A stretch of 54,010 bases of DNA from Candidatus Saccharimonadota bacterium (GTDB taxonomy: Bacteria; Patescibacteriota; Saccharimonadia; Saccharimonadales; Saccharimonadaceae), in NCBI GenBank assembly GCA_037135295.1, contig JBAXKN010000001.1, positions 1 through 54,010 on the forward strand, given 5' to 3'. Below the pieces are notes generated by a model. It saw only the letters and a program-made list of their open reading frames with translations, was not told the DNA's origin and ran no database searches. Below, in pieces: positions 2,464-40,508 of this stretch. Both the position numbers and the translations under genes were made by a program. Within the stretch, counting starts at the first letter, position 1. Each line of letters opens with the position of its first letter.

Positions 2464-4839
2464 GTGGCTATAAGTAGAAGAACATTTCTAATATCTACCG
2501 TAATAGTGGTTATTATAGTTTTTTCTAGTGCCTGGCTTATTAATGACGGTTTAAAGTCAAATTCCAGCAATTCAGTTTCAAATATTTTCACTGATGCTTA
2601 TTGTGGCGTATTTTCTAATGTTAATGATGATTGTATCGAAGGAATTCCAACCAAAGAGAGTAACACTATTATTGACAGTTCGCTAGATACTTCATCAATA
2701 GCACTGTCTAATTCATTAGGTGGAATAATTTCAATTGATGTTGGCGGTGGAGATGGTATTGTTGGACCTCAGGGTCCAATAGGATTAACTGGCCTAGAAG
2801 GTGATCAAGGTGCTTCAGGATCTCAAGGATTATCGGGTCAAACTGGCATTCAGGGACCTATAGGGTTAACTGGGTTGCAGGGTTCTCAAGGTTTACAGGG
2901 CGAAAAGGGGGATACAGGTTCACAAGGTGCTGATGGTATTAAGGGTGACACAGGCGCTCAAGGTATTCAAGGATTGCAGGGTTTACAAGGTATTCAGGGA
3001 GAAAAGGGTACTCAGGGTATTCAAGGACCGATTGGTTTAACAGGAGATCAAGGTATTCAGGGAGAAAAGGGTGATACAGGTTCACAGGGTACTCAGGGTA
3101 TTCAAGGACCTATTGGATTAACCGGTTCACAGGGCTTGCAAGGTGCACAGGGTGGACAAGGTAATCAAGGTATTCAGGGTATAGCTGGTGTGAATGGTCA
3201 AAGTATAGGCCAGTTATTTTGGTTTCGTGATGTAGATTCAGATATTACTGGTTATGAAAGTTTTTTGCGAGCACCAAGCGCAGGGAATGAAATAGAGGAA
3301 TCTACTGTCGCCCTAGTTTCAGATCAAGAGTATTTAATTGATTCATACGCAAGTGAATCTGGTGTGCCTGGTATTAGCAAGTTACCAGTCGGATTGTGGG
3401 AGTTTCATACTTATACTCATGTAACTGGTGGCACTGGCAACGTAATATACAGGATATATAAGAGAGATATTAGTGGAAACGAGACAGAGCTATTTAATAT
3501 CACGAGTGCTGACATAATAAATACATCTATTGACACAGAGGTGGTAACTAATTACACATACTCTGGATCAGCAGCCATGGAATCAACAGACAGAATAGTT
3601 GTTAAGATATTTGCGAAAAATAAAACCGCTGGTCAGTCTTCTGATTTTGTACATGATGGTACATCCCATGTTTCATATGTGATTACATCGTTAGGTGTTT
3701 CTGGAATAGTTGGTGCTCAAGGTATTCAGGGAATTCAGGGTACACAGGGTATTCAGGGATTGCAGGGCGTTCAAGGTATCCAAGGAGAAAAGGGGTTACA
3801 GGGTATTCAAGGACCTATTGGTTTAACGGGAGACCAAGGTATACAGGGAGAAAAGGGTGATACAGGTTCACAGGGCGCTCAGGGTATTCAAGGACCTATT
3901 GGATTAACTGGCTCACAAGGGTCGCAAGGCATACAGGGTGTTCAAGGTATTAAAGGTGACACAGGTTCACAAGGTATACAGGGAGAAAAGGGTGATACAG
4001 GTTCACAGGGCGCTCAGGGTATTCAAGGACCTATTGGATTAACTGGCTCACAGGGACTGCAAGGTATACAAGGAATCCAGGGTGTACAAGGTCTCCAAGG
4101 TGAGACTGGCTTATCCGTCGCTGGAAATGGGATTTCAATTGCAGGTAGTACTATCTCTGCAAAATTAAATGGAACATCAATATTAAACGGCGCAAGTGGT
4201 TTATCTATTAATTTGTCCAATGTTAACACATGGGCTGGGTTGCAGACATTCAACGGTGCGAAATTTGGTTCTGATGGCGTTAATTTTTCTCAATTCGAAA
4301 CTGATGGTACATTGGTTTTTGACGGCAATGCAACAGTATGGGATGATTTACGATTTCCTGCAACTGCCATAAATCCTGCAGGAGCAGCTATAGCGATGAC
4401 TTTCGATCCAGACCAAATAGGATTTATTTCAGCTGCAACAGGTACGCAGTCAATTGCTATAATCGGACAGATGCCGCATTCATGGAAAGTCGGATCTGAT
4501 ATCTATCCTCATATACACTGGAATCCAACAACTACCAATACTGGTAGTGTGCTATGGAGAATGGAATATAAGTGGACAAATATTAATGATACTGAACCGG
4601 CGGGTTTTACAACTGTTGATGTATTAGATCCGGGTGATGGAATTGCACTCAAGCACCAACTTATCGGATTCGGAGCAATATCGGGTGCAGGAAAAACATT
4701 ATCTAGTGGATTGACTATAAGAATATCAAGGATTGGTGGTGATGTAACAGATACATATACAGGCAATTCCTTGCTAAAAGAATTTGATATCCATTATGAA
4801 ATAGATACCTTAGGTTCCCGAACGGAGTCAGCAAAATGA
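2464..4839 (+). CDS. membrane-anchored collagen-like repeat protein with globular middle and C-terminal (tail-fiber-like) domains
   Basis: N-terminal TM helix. Two uninterrupted Gly-X-Y tracts (I count 50 and 46 triplets, Gln-rich, Pro-poor). They are separated by about 170 aa of non-repeat sequence and followed by a C-terminal domain of about 240 aa. The stop overlaps the next start (ATGA at 4836-4839). Confidence 0.9.
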   Translation: MAISRRTFLISTVIVVIIVFSSAWLINDGLKSNSSNSVSNIFTDAYCGVFSNVNDDCIEGIPTKESNTIIDSSLDTSSIALSNSLGGIISIDVGGGDGIVGPQGPIGLTGLEGDQGASGSQGLSGQTGIQGPIGLTGLQGSQGLQGEKGDTGSQGADGIKGDTGAQGIQGLQGLQGIQGEKGTQGIQGPIGLTGDQGIQGEKGDTGSQGTQGIQGPIGLTGSQGLQGAQGGQGNQGIQGIAGVNGQSIGQLFWFRDVDSDITGYESFLRAPSAGNEIEESTVALVSDQEYLIDSYASESGVPGISKLPVGLWEFHTYTHVTGGTGNVIYRIYKRDISGNETELFNITSADIINTSIDTEVVTNYTYSGSAAMESTDRIVVKIFAKNKTAGQSSDFVHDGTSHVSYVITSLGVSGIVGAQGIQGIQGTQGIQGLQGVQGIQGEKGLQGIQGPIGLTGDQGIQGEKGDTGSQGAQGIQGPIGLTGSQGSQGIQGVQGIKGDTGSQGIQGEKGDTGSQGAQGIQGPIGLTGSQGLQGIQGIQGVQGLQGETGLSVAGNGISIAGSTISAKLNGTSILNGASGLSINLSNVNTWAGLQTFNGAKFGSDGVNFSQFETDGTLVFDGNATVWDDLRFPATAINPAGAAIAMTFDPDQIGFISAATGTQSIAIIGQMPHSWKVGSDIYPHIHWNPTTTNTGSVLWRMEYKWTNINDTEPAGFTTVDVLDPGDGIALKHQLIGFGAISGAGKTLSSGLTIRISRIGGDVTDTYTGNSLLKEFDIHYEIDTLGSRTESAK
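2745..3200 (+). repeat. collagen-like Gly-X-Y tract 1 (coding)
   Basis: Runs from GIVGPQGPIGLTG to GIAGVNGQS. Contains recurring near-identical nucleotide blocks such as CAGGGTATTCAAGGACC-ATTGG-TTAAC. Confidence 0.9.
3703..4110 (+). repeat. collagen-like Gly-X-Y tract 2 (coding)
   Basis: Runs from GIVGAQGIQGIQG to GLQGETGLS. Shares long near-identical nucleotide blocks with tract 1 (for example around 3090-3125, 3880-3915 and 4015-4050). Confidence 0.9.
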
Positions 4840-12391: not shown

Positions 12392-12465
12392 GGCGCGTTG
12401 ACGGAACGGTTACGTAGAGGTCTGCAAAACCTTTTAAATGGGTTCGACTCCCATACGTGCCTCCA
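12392..12465 (+). tRNA. tRNA-Cys(GCA)
   Basis: Acceptor GGCGCGT/ACGTGCC (one G-U), anticodon arm GAGGT/CTGCAAA/ACCTT, T arm ATGGG/TTCGACT/CCCAT, discriminator U, encoded CCA. Confidence 0.9.
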
Positions 12466-12473
12466 AACAATTA

Positions 12474-12560
12474 GCGTGGATGGTGGAATTGGTATACACG
12501 AGAGACTTAAAATCTCTTGGCCTCACGGCCGTGCGGGTTCAAGTCCCGCTCCACGCACCA
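12474..12560 (+). tRNA. tRNA-Leu(UAA)
   Basis: Acceptor GCGTGGA/TCCACGC, anticodon arm AGAGA/CTTAAAA/TCTCT, long variable arm (GGCC..GGCC), T arm GCGGG/TTCAAGT/CCCGC, discriminator A, encoded CCA. Confidence 0.92.
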
Positions 12561-23776: not shown

Positions 23777-24313
23777 TTACTTTTTTTGCAGTTTTATTTT
23801 TTTAATTGTGGTTATGGTGTCATTATCTTCATACCTACAAATATCAACGCAGTCAATTAAACCAGTTATATTAATCTGATTAGAATTCAGACGACTGGCT
23901 TCTTTTTTTATCAATTTCATATTTTTACTATTACCTATACCTATATGTGGCGTAAAAGGTATATCAGTCCTTAACTCTTTTTTTAAAACACCCGAATATA
24001 ATTTGTCATGTAAATTTACAATGTTTTTACTTCCAATATCAGGTACCAGGAATGTATGCCAGTATTCGTTAAAAGCATCTTTATTAATTTCGACATGATT
24101 AACGTTGAATTTTATAGTTTTAGTGTTTCGGAGCTCTTTTACTATATGATTAATAATTGACTTTTCGTCAGAGTAGTCAAAAACTGGAAAGACTAAAGTA
24201 AAATGTGGTTTTATAACACTATAATAAAGCTCGTCATTTTTTTGCCTATATTTCTGAATCCATTCAAAATCACTATTTATTAATTTTGGGTATGCTATTA
24301 CTATTAATGCCAT
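23777..24313 (-). CDS. 2H phosphoesterase superfamily protein (LigT-like)
   Basis: HFTL and HIGI motifs about 85 aa apart. I moved the start to ATG 24313 (MALIVIAYP), with AGGAG 5 nt upstream. The ORF-track start 24400 lies 2 nt from the divergent neighbour. Confidence 0.5.
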   Translation of the reverse strand: MALIVIAYPKLINSDFEWIQKYRQKNDELYYSVIKPHFTLVFPVFDYSDEKSIINHIVKELRNTKTIKFNVNHVEINKDAFNEYWHTFLVPDIGSKNIVNLHDKLYSGVLKKELRTDIPFTPHIGIGNSKNMKLIKKEASRLNSNQINITGLIDCVDICRYEDNDTITTIKKIKLQKK

Positions 24314-24402
24314 AAACACTCCTAATGACATTCTAGCAAACCCTAACCTGATTTTGGAATATATTATAGTGACAAAAAATCTTAGTATGATATTATTCAT
24401 TT

Positions 24403-28202: not shown

Positions 28203-31115
28203 ATGAAGCGTTATAATCCAACAGAAATTGAAAAAAAATGGCAAGAAGTTTGGGAAAATGAAGGCACCTATAAAGTAGACTTTTCTGACCATACAAAGCC
28301 AAAATACTACGCAATGAGTATGTTGCCGGGGATTACTGGTGCTGGGATTCATATTGGTCACGGACGAACCTTTCAGTTTAGCGATATTAAAGTTCGATCC
28401 AAGCGTCAGCAAGGATATAATGCATATCATCCTATTGGCTGGGATTCATTTGGTCTTCCAGTTGAAAATTATGCTATAAAAATCGGTAAAAACCCTAGGA
28501 TTGCTCATGATGAAGCTCTAGTTAATTTTAAACGTCAATTAAAGCGACTTGGTTATAGTTATGATTGGTCAAAAGAGATTAGCACGGCTGATCCATCTTA
28601 TTATCGTTGGACTCAATGGATTTTTAATCAATTATTTGAACGTGGTTTAGCCTATCAAAAACAAAGTCCACAATGGTGGTGTGAAACGGATCAAACGGTC
28701 CTTGCAAATGAACAAGTCGAAGCAGGCAAATGTTGGCGATGCGGTAATCAGGTTGTTAAAAAGAATCTTAAACAATGGTTTTTCAAGATTACCGAATATG
28801 CTGATGAAATATTGGATGCAACAGATGATCTAAATTGGACTGAAATGGTAAAAACCATGCAGAAAAATTGGATTGGGCGCTCTCAGGGTGCCGAAGTTGA
28901 ATTCAAGATAGATGGTAGTGATAAAATTATCACTGTTTTCACAACTCGTCCTGATACTCTATTTGGTGCTACTTTTATGGTTATCGCTCCCGAACATAAA
29001 TTTGTAAATGAATTAGTTACAGAAAATACCAAAAGTTCAGTTGAGTCATACGTAACTGAATCAGCTCGTAAATCAGAAATTGAGCGTATGAATGAGTCAC
29101 GCGAAAAAACGGGAGTGTTTACAGGCAGTTATGCTATTAACCCAGCAAATGGTGAAAATATTCCAATCTGGATAGCAGATTATGTATTAGCTGGTTATGG
29201 AACAGGCGCTATAATGGCAGTGCCTGCACATGATGAACGAGATTTTGCCTTTGCCGAAAAATTTAATTTGCCAATTTGTGCAGTTATTTCAAGAGACTTT
29301 GGTGAATTTCTACCAGACTCTAAAGAAGTTAGTGGAGTTGTAGTAATTGGCTATGATTCAAAAACAAAAAAATATATGAGTATCATGAACGGTGATAGGC
29401 GTTGGTTGGTAGGTGGCGGTCACGAGGATGGAGAATCTTATGAACAAACAGCTTATCGTGAACTAAAAGAAGAAGCCGGATTTATTGATGTTCAGAAAAT
29501 GGTTACATTGGGTGATCCTGTTTATTCGTATTATTATAATAGTATAAAAGACAGCAATCGTAGGTCGTTAGCATATAATTTCCTGGTCATGATTGACGCC
29601 AATAACCAAATTGAACAACAACAAGAATCTCATGAAAATTTTTCTGTAGTTTGGTCTGATATCGATGAAATTATTAATGATCTTAAAAAAGAAGATAGTG
29701 GTGCTCATCATTGGTTAGAAATATTATACAGGGCAAAATCAGCTGTAAAGGCCTACGAAACTGGTGATGTATATAAGCCAGACATATATTGTGGCGAAGG
29801 TGTATTGGTAAATTCTAGTGCTTTTGATGGAATGGCGTCAAGTGAAGCTCGTGAGGAAATTGTTGCTTGGCTTGAACAGCAAGGCGTTGGACGTACGAAA
29901 ACTGCATACAAAATGCGGGACTGGTTAATTAGTCGTCAGCGATATTGGGGTGCTCCAATCCCGATTATTCATTGTCCCGAGCATGGTGCTGTGGCAGTTC
30001 CTAATAATCAACTGCCGGTGATTCTACCTGATATCGATGATTACAAACCAAAAGACGGTGAAACCTCAGCTTTAGCTAGCGCTACCGATTGGGTGAATAC
30101 AACATGCCCAAACTGTGGAATGCCCGCGAAACGCGAGACAGACACTATGGATGGTTATGCCTGTAGTAGTTGGTATTTCCTACGCTATTTGGATCCATTT
30201 AATAATAAGCAAGCCTGGGATCCAGAGATTGAAAAGCACTGGGGACCTGTTGATTTTTACAATGGAGCCGACCATGCGGTTGCTCATTTACTGTATTCAC
30301 GTTTTTGGATGCGATTTTTCTATAAAATTGGTCTTGTCTCTACACCAGAACCATTTAAGCGCATGATGTATAACGCCTACATAATGGCACCAGATGGTTC
30401 AAAGATGAGCAAATCTAAAGGTAATACAATCGATCCACTCGAAATAATGGATAGTGGCTATGGCGCTGATAGTTTACGTGTTTACGAAATGTTTATCGCT
30501 CCTTACGATATAGAAGCGCCTTGGGACACTCGCGGTGTGCCTGGCTCATATCGTTTTTTAAACCGTGTTTGGAATTTGACCCAGGAATACATCGAATCTG
30601 GTGATGTTGATTTAGATAAAACTGCTGAAAACGAGATATTATCAATTGCTCATAAAACAGCCAAAAAAATAACCTCTGATATCGAAGACGATAAATTTAA
30701 CACAGCCGTGTCAGCAATGATGGAAGCTGTAAATAACTATTTCAAATTAAAGGAAAAATACAAAATTGGTAAATCACCTGCCTGGGACTTTGCAATCGAA
30801 AGCTTATTGCAGGTATTGTCGCCATTCTCGCCGCATATAACAGAGGAATTATGGCATCAAATAGGTAACAAAGACACTATTCATGTTGATCATTGGCCAA
30901 AGTGGGACAATAAATATCTGCAGTCCGATGTAATGACAATAATAGTCCAAGTGAATGGTAAGTTGCGAGCCAAACTAGAGCTTGCAAAAGATACAGATGA
31001 AGAAGATATTAAAAAACTTGCCTTAGGCAATGATAATGTGAAATTATTTATAGGAAATAAAAAACCGACCAAGGTTATTTATGTTCCTGGTCGGTTAGTG
31101 AATATCGTTGTCTAG
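28203..31115 (+). CDS. leuS: leucyl-tRNA synthetase carrying an inserted Nudix domain
   Basis: HIGH variant (HIGHG), CP1 editing motif TTRPDTLFGATFMVIAPEH, AVPAHDERDF, KMSKS. Total length 970 aa. Confidence 0.95.
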   Translation: MKRYNPTEIEKKWQEVWENEGTYKVDFSDHTKPKYYAMSMLPGITGAGIHIGHGRTFQFSDIKVRSKRQQGYNAYHPIGWDSFGLPVENYAIKIGKNPRIAHDEALVNFKRQLKRLGYSYDWSKEISTADPSYYRWTQWIFNQLFERGLAYQKQSPQWWCETDQTVLANEQVEAGKCWRCGNQVVKKNLKQWFFKITEYADEILDATDDLNWTEMVKTMQKNWIGRSQGAEVEFKIDGSDKIITVFTTRPDTLFGATFMVIAPEHKFVNELVTENTKSSVESYVTESARKSEIERMNESREKTGVFTGSYAINPANGENIPIWIADYVLAGYGTGAIMAVPAHDERDFAFAEKFNLPICAVISRDFGEFLPDSKEVSGVVVIGYDSKTKKYMSIMNGDRRWLVGGGHEDGESYEQTAYRELKEEAGFIDVQKMVTLGDPVYSYYYNSIKDSNRRSLAYNFLVMIDANNQIEQQQESHENFSVVWSDIDEIINDLKKEDSGAHHWLEILYRAKSAVKAYETGDVYKPDIYCGEGVLVNSSAFDGMASSEAREEIVAWLEQQGVGRTKTAYKMRDWLISRQRYWGAPIPIIHCPEHGAVAVPNNQLPVILPDIDDYKPKDGETSALASATDWVNTTCPNCGMPAKRETDTMDGYACSSWYFLRYLDPFNNKQAWDPEIEKHWGPVDFYNGADHAVAHLLYSRFWMRFFYKIGLVSTPEPFKRMMYNAYIMAPDGSKMSKSKGNTIDPLEIMDSGYGADSLRVYEMFIAPYDIEAPWDTRGVPGSYRFLNRVWNLTQEYIESGDVDLDKTAENEILSIAHKTAKKITSDIEDDKFNTAVSAMMEAVNNYFKLKEKYKIGKSPAWDFAIESLLQVLSPFSPHITEELWHQIGNKDTIHVDHWPKWDNKYLQSDVMTIIVQVNGKLRAKLELAKDTDEEDIKKLALGNDNVKLFIGNKKPTKVIYVPGRLVNIVV
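29290..29770 (+). other. in-frame Nudix-domain insertion within leuS (Nudix box at 29412-29483)
   Basis: GGHEDGESYEQTAYRELKEEAGF matches G-x5-E-x7-REUxEExGU at every fixed position. It lies between AVPAHDERDFAFAEKFNLPI and GEGVLVNSSAFDGM, segments that are only a few tens of residues apart in canonical bacterial LeuRS. Confidence 0.8.
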
Positions 31116-31128
31116 GACCTATAATTGG

Positions 31129-31521
31129 TTATTTTGGGCTTGGGCTAATATTTTTATCTCCAGAGTTTGATTCTGAAGTGTTATTGTCAATAAACCCTTC
31201 AATATACTCAAAATCGCCTGACCCATTATCTCTAATACTATCATTTATTACCTCTACATCTATTGCCTCAGTATTGTCAATAGACCCTTCAATATACTCA
31301 AAATCGCCTGACCCATTATCTTTAAGACTATCGTGTATAATTCGTTCATTTGTAACTGGAGTTGTCGACGTGCTATCGAAGGTAATATGCGCGCACTCGT
31401 TTAGTCCTGTTCCTATCACAGCAGCTAATATCACCGCCAAACCCAGTCGCTTCATTCTTACCAGTTTAATGTCTGGTGATTTTTCTTTTGTCTGACTACG
31501 GTTTAAATCTTCTTGGTTCAT
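31129..31521 (-). CDS. small membrane-anchored protein with a tandem 30-aa repeat
   Basis: N-terminus MNQEDLNR..EKS..MKRLG plus a TM helix. The repeat DS[LI][KR]DNGSGDFEYIEG.IDN occurs twice. The N-terminus is paralogous to that of 34388..34741. Confidence 0.65.
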   Translation of the reverse strand: MNQEDLNRSQTKEKSPDIKLVRMKRLGLAVILAAVIGTGLNECAHITFDSTSTTPVTNERIIHDSLKDNGSGDFEYIEGSIDNTEAIDVEVINDSIRDNGSGDFEYIEGFIDNNTSESNSGDKNISPSPK

Positions 31522-35064: not shown

Positions 35065-35523
35065 ATGGCATCTAATCGCCACCTCGGTCGCATCGTTGCT
35101 TTGCAAACTTTATACGAATATGAATTTCGTGTTCAATCAGCAGACATAACAGTAAATGTTGACGAAATTCTAACTCGTAACCTTGATAGGTACGAGGCTA
35201 CGATTGATGACAAAGGCTTTGTAGGAATACTCGTAAAGGGTGTTATTTCCGAACAAGCCGACTTAGATGCCAAAATCCAACCAATTGCGCCTGATTGGCC
35301 GATTGATCAGATAGCGCGAATCGATTGTAATATTATACGAATTGGTTTATATGAGTTGCTTTATCAAGCAAAACTTATTCCACCAAAAGTTGCAATTAAC
35401 GAAGCTGTCGAGTTGGCAAAAGCGTTTGGTTCCGATAATTCAAGTAAGTTCGTAAATGGTGTGCTTGGCACCGCATATAGAACGCTTGTCGAGGAAACAA
35501 CCGATGACAGCAGTAAAGTTTGA
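35065..35523 (+). CDS. nusB: transcription antitermination factor NusB
   Basis: [13 protein letters not shown] ... [25 protein letters not shown]. Confidence 0.88.
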
Positions 35524-35995
35524 GAATTTCAAAAAATACTTTAGTAAAAAAAATCAAATACAGGAAATAGTTCGTGAGCCGACCTCTGGTGGTATTATTT
35601 TTCGTCGTGATAAAAATGATGGCGTTGAGATTTTATTAATTCAAGATGGAAAAGATCGCTGGACTATTCCAAAAGGTCATATCGAAGAAGGCGAAACTGC
35701 TGAACAAACAGCAAAGCGTGAAATTAATGAAGAGGCAGGTCTTTCTGATGTTGATATATTGGGGTGGCTAGGTAAGATACATTTTCGTTATCGACGTGTT
35801 GATAAGTTAGTCCTAATGACTACTCAAATTTATCTTGTTCGTGCCAAAGGCGATACCACTGCAATTCAAAAAGAAGAATGGATGAATGGTATAAAATGGT
35901 TCAAGTTTAATGATGCACTTGATGCAATTGAATATGAAGATATTGGAAAATTAATGTTACTAGCTATGAAGCGAATTAGACAGGAGAATTTATGA
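35504..35995 (+). CDS. Nudix hydrolase
   Basis: Nudix box [24 protein letters not shown] moved the start to ATG 35504, with GAGGAA 7 nt upstream. It overlaps the nusB end by 20 nt. Confidence 0.85.
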
Positions 35996-40433: not shown

Positions 40434-40508
40434 TGGGGTGTCGCCAAGTGGTAAGGCACCGGCTTTTGGTGCCGGCATTCGGGGGTTCGAATCCCTCCAC
40501 CCCAGCCA
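40434..40508 (+). tRNA. tRNA-Gln(UUG)
   Basis: Acceptor TGGGGTG/CACCCCA (U1-A72), D arm GCC/GGC, anticodon arm CCGGC/TTTTGGT/GCCGG, T arm GGGGG/TTCGAAT/CCCTC, discriminator G, encoded CCA. 75 nt. Confidence 0.93.

Follow-up and report, generated by a model that had tools for sequence, protein, structure and literature searches.

The stretch of DNA analysed here (the window) comprises the 54,010 nucleotides at positions 1 to 54,010 of the forward strand of contig JBAXKN010000001.1, from the assembly GCA_037135295.1 of a Candidatus Saccharimonadota bacterium, and it carries a leuS gene whose product, a leucyl-tRNA synthetase (LeuRS), holds a complete Nudix domain nested in its CP1 editing domain. 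An earlier note on this DNA, made from the sequence without database searches, had described an in-frame Nudix domain with an intact catalytic box within a complete LeuRS, and Pfam, structure prediction, Foldseek and the invariance of the catalytic glutamates all bear this out. The features of the gene are as follows, with residues numbered in amino acids (aa) of the window LeuRS and invariance referring to 79 homologs.

28203–31115, + strand: leuS, a bacterial-type LeuRS with a nested Nudix domain, 970 aa (open reading frame (ORF) list; TIGR00396; 1h3n match).
28350–28361, + strand: HIGH motif of the synthetic site, aa 50–53 (H50, G52 and H53 invariant).
28863–29297, + strand: N-terminal three quarters of the CP1 editing domain, aa 221–365 (PF13603 profile positions 1–143 of 185).
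28941–28976, + strand: Thr-rich editing motif TTRPDTLFGATF, aa 247–258 (T248, R249, D251 and T252 invariant).
29217–29276, + strand: editing-site motif AVPAHDERDFAFAEKFNLPI, aa 339–358, the final conserved LeuRS block ahead of the insert (H343, D344, R346 and D347 invariant).
29286–29795, + strand: variable cassette that replaces the CP1 linker, aa 362–531 (alignments; sliding-window identity; AlphaFold model).
29406–29699, + strand: Pfam NUDIX match, aa 402–499 (PF00293, E = 7e-12, 45.9 bits against a cut-off of 21.1).
29415–29483, + strand: Nudix box GGHEDGESYEQTAYRELKEEAGF, aa 405–427, with metal-binding E420, E423 and E424 (pattern match).
29526–29567, + strand: subfamily motif SYYYNSIKDSNRRS, 3' of the box, aa 442–455, with K449 invariant in the aligned inserts (insert alignments).
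29793–29834, + strand: GEGVLVNSSAFDGM, aa 531–544, where LeuRS CP1 sequence restarts past the cassette (query residue 529 aligns to Thermus thermophilus residue 377).
30402–30416, + strand: KMSKS motif, aa 734–738 (K734, M735, S736, K737 and S738 invariant).

The bacterial LeuRS model TIGR00396 (leuS_bact) matches the window protein at 969.8 bits (cut-off 548.4) in two stretches that are split at aa 365, and T. thermophilus LeuRS (PDB 1h3n) matches it with an E value of 1.9e-235. The editing-domain profile PF13603 (E = 2.9e-67) is also found in two stretches, the profile beyond position 143 of 185 being matched in the second; this break in the profile places the extra residues within CP1. Two editing-domain sequences, TTRPDT and AVPAHDERD (aa 339–347), are invariant among the 79 homologs, and the HIGH, TTRPDTLFGATF and KMSKS motifs that the earlier note had reported as retained were all located and share this invariance. 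A Foldseek search with the full-length model returned LeuRS structures only. The gene is thus predicted to encode a working bacterial-type LeuRS, all testable features of the family being present.

Alignment to 1h3n pairs residues 1–374 of the window LeuRS with T. thermophilus residues 1–373 and residues 529–729 with T. thermophilus residues 377–579, which leaves about 155 extra residues between the two blocks. The earlier note had counted some 160 extra residues between AVPAHDERDFAFAEKFNLPI and GEGVLVNSSAFDGM; the insert is indeed there, but it is about 155 residues long by this alignment, and 172 residues lie between the two motifs. Its coordinates for the domain (29290–29770, aa 363–523) were likewise right in position but not in extent, the segment that differs among relatives being slightly larger (29286–29795). 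Close relatives that lack the insert have a linker of 10–17 aa at the same position, as had been expected of LeuRS in general. The cassette consists of an entire Nudix fold together with an N-terminal strand (DFGE.LPD..EV.G) and a long C-terminal helix. Its box fits the pattern G-x5-E-x7-R-E-U-x-E-E-x-G-U at all nine fixed positions, in agreement with the earlier reading of the sequence; when the window is translated in six frames, this strict pattern is matched at two places, the LeuRS insert and a stand-alone gene at 35456–35995, and 200 shuffles of the DNA gave 0.0 matches per shuffle. Most insert types and the stand-alone homologs also have in common the pattern [YF][YF]xxxKxxN[RY], the lysine of which (position 88 of the insert alignment, K449 of LeuRS) is invariant in the alignments A2, A3 and A4.

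Structure prediction and comparison point the same way. AlphaFold modelled the cassette alone with a pLDDT of 92.9 and a pTM of 0.88, and in the full-length model the insert (pLDDT about 84–94) is among the best-predicted regions. A Foldseek search of the PDB with the insert model gave 544 matches at E ≤ 0.001, and among the matches listed 50 of 50 were Nudix enzymes, with TM scores of up to 0.77. The best were 2azw (0.77), Escherichia coli RppH (0.65–0.72) and the diadenosine tetraphosphate (Ap4A) hydrolases of Caenorhabditis elegans and human (0.64–0.71), and hydrolases of ADP-ribose and of nucleoside diphosphate (NDP) sugars were also among the best matches. A profile built from 28 inserts likewise found 2azw at the top of the PDB (E = 1.4e-10), with 1f3y, the Ap4A hydrolase of lupin, in second place (E = 2.6e-8, over the N-terminal half only). 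The extra LeuRS segment is therefore a genuine, self-contained Nudix protein of about 155–170 aa, placed in frame in a surface loop of CP1.

The architecture is not peculiar to the window. A full-length homolog search listed 120 close LeuRS at 69–85% identity, the window protein included, and 83 of these have an insert of about 160 aa in exactly the same loop, almost all with a precomputed PF00293 match, while the other 37 have a linker of 15–16 aa instead; in all, at least 80 independently assembled Saccharimonadales LeuRS have a Nudix insert at this site. Those with names come from metagenome-assembled genomes labelled 'Candidatus Saccharimonadales', 'Saccharibacteria' or 'Patescibacteria group', and these names make a Saccharimonadia (Patescibacteria) bacterium the most likely source of the window. 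In GTDB, sampled at one genome per species, an insert of about 160 aa is present in 18 of the 80 best leuS loci, and one further locus, labelled as an archaeal metagenome-assembled genome, has a gap of 123 aa; loci named Nanosynbacter, Nanosyncoccus or Minimicrobia have a linker of 14–15 aa. The survey of related genomes that had been suggested thus recovered the insert repeatedly, and on this evidence the LeuRS–Nudix fusion is common in environmental Saccharimonadales rather than a singleton. The insertion is typical of its lineage and has a Nudix fold, so that the possibility raised earlier, a lineage-typical insertion without such a fold, does not apply. The architecture is already present in public databases, where it is machine-annotated with PF00293, and a literature search, itself incomplete, found no published description of a LeuRS–Nudix protein. 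A word-indexed search with the 163-aa insert alone yielded 18 candidates and a single match, to a stand-alone protein, and missed dozens of LeuRS inserts that are 55–67% identical. In six GTDB Saccharibacteria leuS loci (L033, L034, L040, L054, L056 and L015) the protein is longer by about 130 residues close to where CP1 begins, upstream of the site that corresponds to aa 243 of the window LeuRS; this segment, in which no Nudix box was found, is a different insertion.

Conservation was assessed in 28 diverse inserts of ten types, with a mean column identity of 41%. G405, E420, E423, E424 and K449 are invariant in all 28, and G406, R419, G426 and W484 are at least 90% conserved. The box scores nine of nine in all 48 close homologs that share the insert type of the window, and in nearly all LeuRS-embedded representatives. 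In type B inserts the box loop is two residues longer and the three metal-binding glutamates are kept. Catalysis by the insert thus appears to be under selection, and the retention of catalytic residues across insert types is what an enzyme that has stayed active would be expected to show.

Between pairs of LeuRS, the identity of the inserts does not follow that of the cores. Compared with the window LeuRS, the protein P0033 is 87% identical in the core and 28–31% in the insert, P0004 is 80% and 59–60% identical, and P0127 is 56% and 43–46% identical. P0033 and P0221 share 45% identity in the core and 49% in the insert; the corresponding values are 92.7% and 27% for P0003 and P0055, and 95.4% and 35% for P0058 and P0077, and between P0003 and P0061, with cores 93% identical, the insert is present in one gene and absent from the other. 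In a sliding window, identity of 90% or more gives way to about 20% over exactly aa 346–530 and then recovers. Among 103 pairs with cores at least 90% identical, both members lack the insert in 36, one member has it in 26, both have the same type in 33 and the two have different types in 8. The GTDB loci L013 and L016 carry the insert, and relatives with cores 93–95% identical have the linker DKPEDSADIGCYTG. Conversely, the same insert type is found in LeuRS whose cores are only about 45% identical. A neighbour-joining tree of LeuRS cores has a star-like shape in which the insert types and the genes without an insert are intermingled, although we use it descriptively since it carries no bootstrap support. 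The upstream gene order runs from a Mur ligase through, at many loci, a homolog of a 481-aa protein of unknown function to leuS, and it is the same with and without the insert, so these genes represent one orthologous locus.

The Nudix module is, then, both dispensable and exchangeable among LeuRS. The pattern is most simply read as the persistence of several ancient insert types in the gene pool, with exchange and loss by recombination within leuS. An alternative account of the diversity is differential loss from ancestors that had tandem Nudix copies, and tandem and multi-site Nudix forms do occur in distant LeuRS lineages (P0125, P0131, P0138 and P0141). These four and P0143 are distant LeuRS of 941–1251 aa, some of which have two or three Nudix domains distributed over two sites, one ahead of CP1 and one behind it; P0143 has an additional inserted nucleotidyltransferase domain (NTP_transf_5).

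Relatives of the insert were sought exhaustively with HMMER among 1.84 billion cluster representatives (50% clusters), and only 160 proteins were found at E ≤ 0.001. LeuRS or LeuRS fragments account for 59 of the 150 best representatives, with cores only 35–60% identical to that of the window; the distant LeuRS–Nudix representatives have no recorded name other than 'leucyl-tRNA synthetase'. Other hosts of the same Nudix subfamily are an isoleucyl-tRNA synthetase (IleRS)-like protein with a Nudix and a histidine phosphatase (His_Phos_1) domain (P0183), two arginyl-tRNA synthetases (ArgRS; P0217 and P0224), four RNase PH-domain proteins resembling polynucleotide phosphorylase (PNPase; P0142, P0144, P0181 and P0262) and a GNAT–Nudix–GNAT–M17 peptidase protein (P0145). 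The nearest named relatives of the PNPase-like hosts are Patescibacteria, and at least 14 further clusters of such hosts have a Nudix domain. The link of the insert subfamily to tRNA and RNA enzymes is therefore strong. Three stand-alone metagenomic proteins of 172–177 aa (P0001, P0128 and P0129) align with the insert from end to end, including the N- and C-terminal extensions, which means that a whole small protein was either nested in LeuRS or released from it. P0001 is encoded beside a nucleoside phosphorylase and a kinase-like gene, a salvage-type context; a metagenome scan for stand-alone homologs, made with a single protein, gave one 2.2-kb contig with uninformative neighbours.

We tentatively favour the interpretation that the insert is an active module of the RppH/Ap4A-hydrolase class, placed on the part of LeuRS that handles tRNA ends and directed at a substrate from tRNA or RNA metabolism; taken as a whole, we give this statement somewhat less than even odds (about 45%). 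The module would be an Mg2+-dependent pyrophosphohydrolase, as the invariant E420, E423 and E424 suggest, mounted on the domain with which LeuRS handles the acceptor end of tRNA. It would act on a nucleotide-pyrophosphate substrate tied to tRNA or RNA metabolism and not on leucine activation itself, cleaving at the pyrophosphate and releasing a nucleoside monophosphate. Our best guess at the substrate, which is the least secure step of the proposal, would be dinucleoside polyphosphates (Np4N), either free or as RNA 5' caps, or else pyrophosphates at RNA 5' ends. Aminoacyl-tRNA synthetases make Np4N as a side product, and the RppH/Ap4A-hydrolase class is favoured because such enzymes are among the best structural and profile matches, because synthetases are a source of Np4N and because decapping would suit a PNPase-like host. 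Hydrolysis of misactivated aminoacyl-adenylates, which the earlier note had proposed, is unlikely because the bond in these compounds is an acyl-phosphate and not a pyrophosphate.

Several observations weigh against the interpretation that we favour. The fold of the insert is nearly as similar to ADP-ribose and NDP-sugar hydrolases as it is to RppH and the Ap4A hydrolases. RppH is the best named NCBIfam match (NF001936), at 19.3 bits against a cut-off of 118, which places the insert outside the RppH equivalogs (NCBIfam PRK00714); the insert resembles RppH in fold and is not a member of the RppH family. ArgRS is not known to produce Ap4A, and the products of PNPase are NDPs; a role confined to mopping up synthetase-made Ap4A therefore fails for those hosts. 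The insert is frequently lost, which means that LeuRS works without it and that its coupling to LeuRS chemistry may be nil. Finally, the box of the type C clade is degenerate, with the first glutamate lost (E to Q), the arginine replaced (R to A, N or M) and the last glycine changed to alanine, although type C inserts still hold all three metal-binding glutamates.

The frequent loss of the insert also bears on the idea of a nested but functionally independent housekeeping Nudix enzyme, for nucleotide sanitation or salvage, that sits in a tolerant surface loop and gains from the fusion only secure expression from an essential, constitutively expressed gene in a tiny genome, with no coupling to LeuRS or tRNA. 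Such an enzyme would be expected to equal a whole stand-alone protein, as the insert does, and to be dispensable, as the differences in presence between cores 93–95% identical indicate; the salvage-type context of P0001 is consistent with it, and GNAT, His_Phos_1, NTP_transf_5 and DUF559 domains are likewise nested in such enzymes of Patescibacteria. However, the hosts are strongly non-random, with LeuRS making up 59 of the 150 nearest representatives and all but one of the other multidomain hosts scanned being RNA or tRNA enzymes, and the retention and swapping of several ancient insert types at one site is not something that this idea predicts; we consider it rather unlikely. The same turnover of alleles, with deep, long-lived types and frequent loss, is what would be expected if the segment were a hypervariable, horizontally exchanged conflict or repair cassette, which would clear blocking or toxic pyrophosphate-linked adducts or caps made by toxins or phages from the tRNA acceptor end or other RNA ends (3'-pyrophosphorylated CCA, a 5'-triphosphate or cap, or ADP-ribose-type adducts, for example) or destroy a toxin-made nucleotide, acting where translation is vulnerable, its diversity reflecting an arms race with phages, hosts or competitors. 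The CP1 domain of LeuRS binds the tRNA 3' end, and the location of the insert in CP1, the recurrence of the domain in other proteins that bind RNA or tRNA ends (ArgRS, IleRS-like and PNPase-like proteins) and a fold like that of the RNA-end enzyme RppH all fit this idea. Nevertheless, PADLOC-DB gave no match to a defence model (the sole match was PDC-S07, E = 0.0038, over 40 residues of the box region), no phage relative was found beyond one weak match to a Yersinia-phage Nudix protein, the scanned neighbours of leuS included neither a toxin nor an immunity gene, and the adduct idea itself derives from the toxSAS literature. We regard a conflict module as improbable; if true, it would be a new kind of immunity function within a core translation enzyme.

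The degenerate box of type C, along with the longer box loop of type B, might suggest that hydrolysis is irrelevant and that the Nudix fold serves as a structural, tRNA-binding or nucleotide-sensing appendage of CP1. We think this very unlikely: neither type B nor type C departs from any of the three invariant metal-binding glutamates, almost every other copy embedded in LeuRS has a perfect box, and stand-alone homologs have the same residues. We give practically no credence to an artefact or a selfish insertion, be it an assembly chimera, a pseudogene or a spliced, intein-like element. Only the unusual length of the protein speaks for it; a cysteine at aa 363, near the border, was weighed as a candidate first residue of an intein. 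No interruption is present in the reading frame, and the architecture recurs in 18 GTDB species genomes and in dozens of independent JGI, ENA, NCBI and Logan assemblies, which rules out the chimera that the earlier note had allowed for. An intein is rejected because there is no Pfam match to the Hint or intein families, because homologs do not conserve the border residues, the cysteine included, and because a C-terminal His-Asn is lacking. The G+C content of the insert (0.32–0.38; flanks 0.37–0.45) is not aberrant and gives no clear compositional sign of recent foreign DNA.

To our knowledge, foreign catalytic domains are rare in bacterial aminoacyl-tRNA synthetases, and one within an editing domain is unusual. 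What is new here is the cassette behaviour, the ancient insert types and the other hosts (IleRS-like, ArgRS and PNPase or RNase PH-like proteins), and the turnover of the cassette and its recurrence in other tRNA and RNA enzymes are the parts most likely to surprise specialists. An activity on nucleotide signals or RNA ends would be physically tied to tRNA charging in the ultra-small Patescibacteria if the domain acts, as we favour, on Np4N or on tRNA or RNA ends. On the plainest reading, the fusion shows how a reduced genome can accommodate an entire enzyme within a loop of an essential gene. The system is well suited to experiment, as nature supplies near-isogenic LeuRS with different Nudix types or none, the insert equals a whole stand-alone protein and its catalytic residues are clearly identifiable.

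Around leuS, Pfam scans of neighbouring ORFs picked out, among others, a pilin-like protein, a PLD-type enzyme, a 2H phosphoesterase and a Mur ligase. They gave no match for five other ORFs, and no informative operon partner was found among the neighbours scanned. The following features of the window were also recorded.

1486–1950: stand-alone Nudix ORF.
2464–4839, + strand: 791-aa ORF in which long collagen-like Gly-X-Y repeats (GIQGPIGLTGxQG...) precede a C-terminal part without repeats.
12392–12560: tRNA-Cys(GCA) and tRNA-Leu(UAA) in tandem.
23777–24400, − strand: 2H phosphoesterase (2'-5' RNA ligase superfamily, of the RNA-end-healing type), about 4 kb upstream of leuS on the opposite strand; its proximity is probably coincidental.
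31129–31521, − strand: 130-aa ORF immediately downstream of leuS, with an internal near-repeat (DSLKDNGSGDFEYIEGSIDN and DSIRDNGSGDFEYIEGFIDN) and no Pfam match.
35456–35995, + strand: stand-alone Nudix gene (PF00293, E = 1.8e-18) that resembles the LeuRS insert around the box only; it shares sequence with the end of the 152-aa ORF before it and with the start of the 238-aa ORF after it, and by eye these two look like nusB and rnc.
40434–40508: tRNA-Gln(UUG).

Both of the stand-alone Nudix genes that the earlier note had listed exist, the first with the coordinates given there, but the start it assigned to the second (35504) falls inside the longer ORF. The insert is not a recent copy of either, given that it aligns with them in the box region alone (28.5 and 44.7 bits).

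Compared with known systems, the window LeuRS is closest in overall design to the synthetases of T. thermophilus (1H3N and 2BYT) and E. coli (4AQ7 and 4ARC), with which it shares the order of domains, the HIGH and KMSKS motifs, a CP1 domain with Thr-rich and Asp motifs, and the anticodon-binding and C-terminal domains; Foldseek TM scores against known bacterial-type LeuRS structures are about 0.6–0.68. It differs from the T. thermophilus enzyme in the Nudix domain of about 155 aa that lies between T. thermophilus residues 373 and 377, within CP1. The leucine-specific domain of T. thermophilus (about residues 580–636) is also absent, the alignment skipping from query residue 729 to 734 (window positions 30390–30402). 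The insert itself has the Nudix fold and box of E. coli RppH (NudH), human NUDT2 and the C. elegans (1KTG) and lupin (1F3Y) Ap4A hydrolases, enzymes that cleave Np4N and RNA 5'-end pyrophosphates, which is the activity proposed for the insert. Its sequence identity to these enzymes is only 14–18%, and unlike them it has its own N-terminal strand, C-terminal helix and YYxxxKxxNR motif and is nested rather than free-standing. The Enterococcus faecalis MutT/nudix protein 2AZW, a structural-genomics entry, is the top match by both profile and structure across nearly the whole domain, but it is a stand-alone protein, 18% identical, and adds no functional information because its substrate is not known.

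As a fusion, a close parallel is the IleRS with an N-acetyltransferase domain (NCBIfam NF040702, ileS_w_GNAT), which is likewise a class Ia synthetase and is recognised by curators as having a foreign enzyme domain; the host synthetase and the guest family are both different, and its match to the window LeuRS runs through the shared synthetase core only. The closest counterparts of the guest are the free-standing P0001, P0128 and P0129, which are 40–44% identical to the insert over nearly its full length and share with it an EFG..P....V.G N-terminus, the box, the lysine motif and an HW..L..A C-terminal helix. These proteins are encoded by free genes, unlike the nested insert, and P0001 lies in its nucleoside-phosphorylase neighbourhood and not beside leuS.

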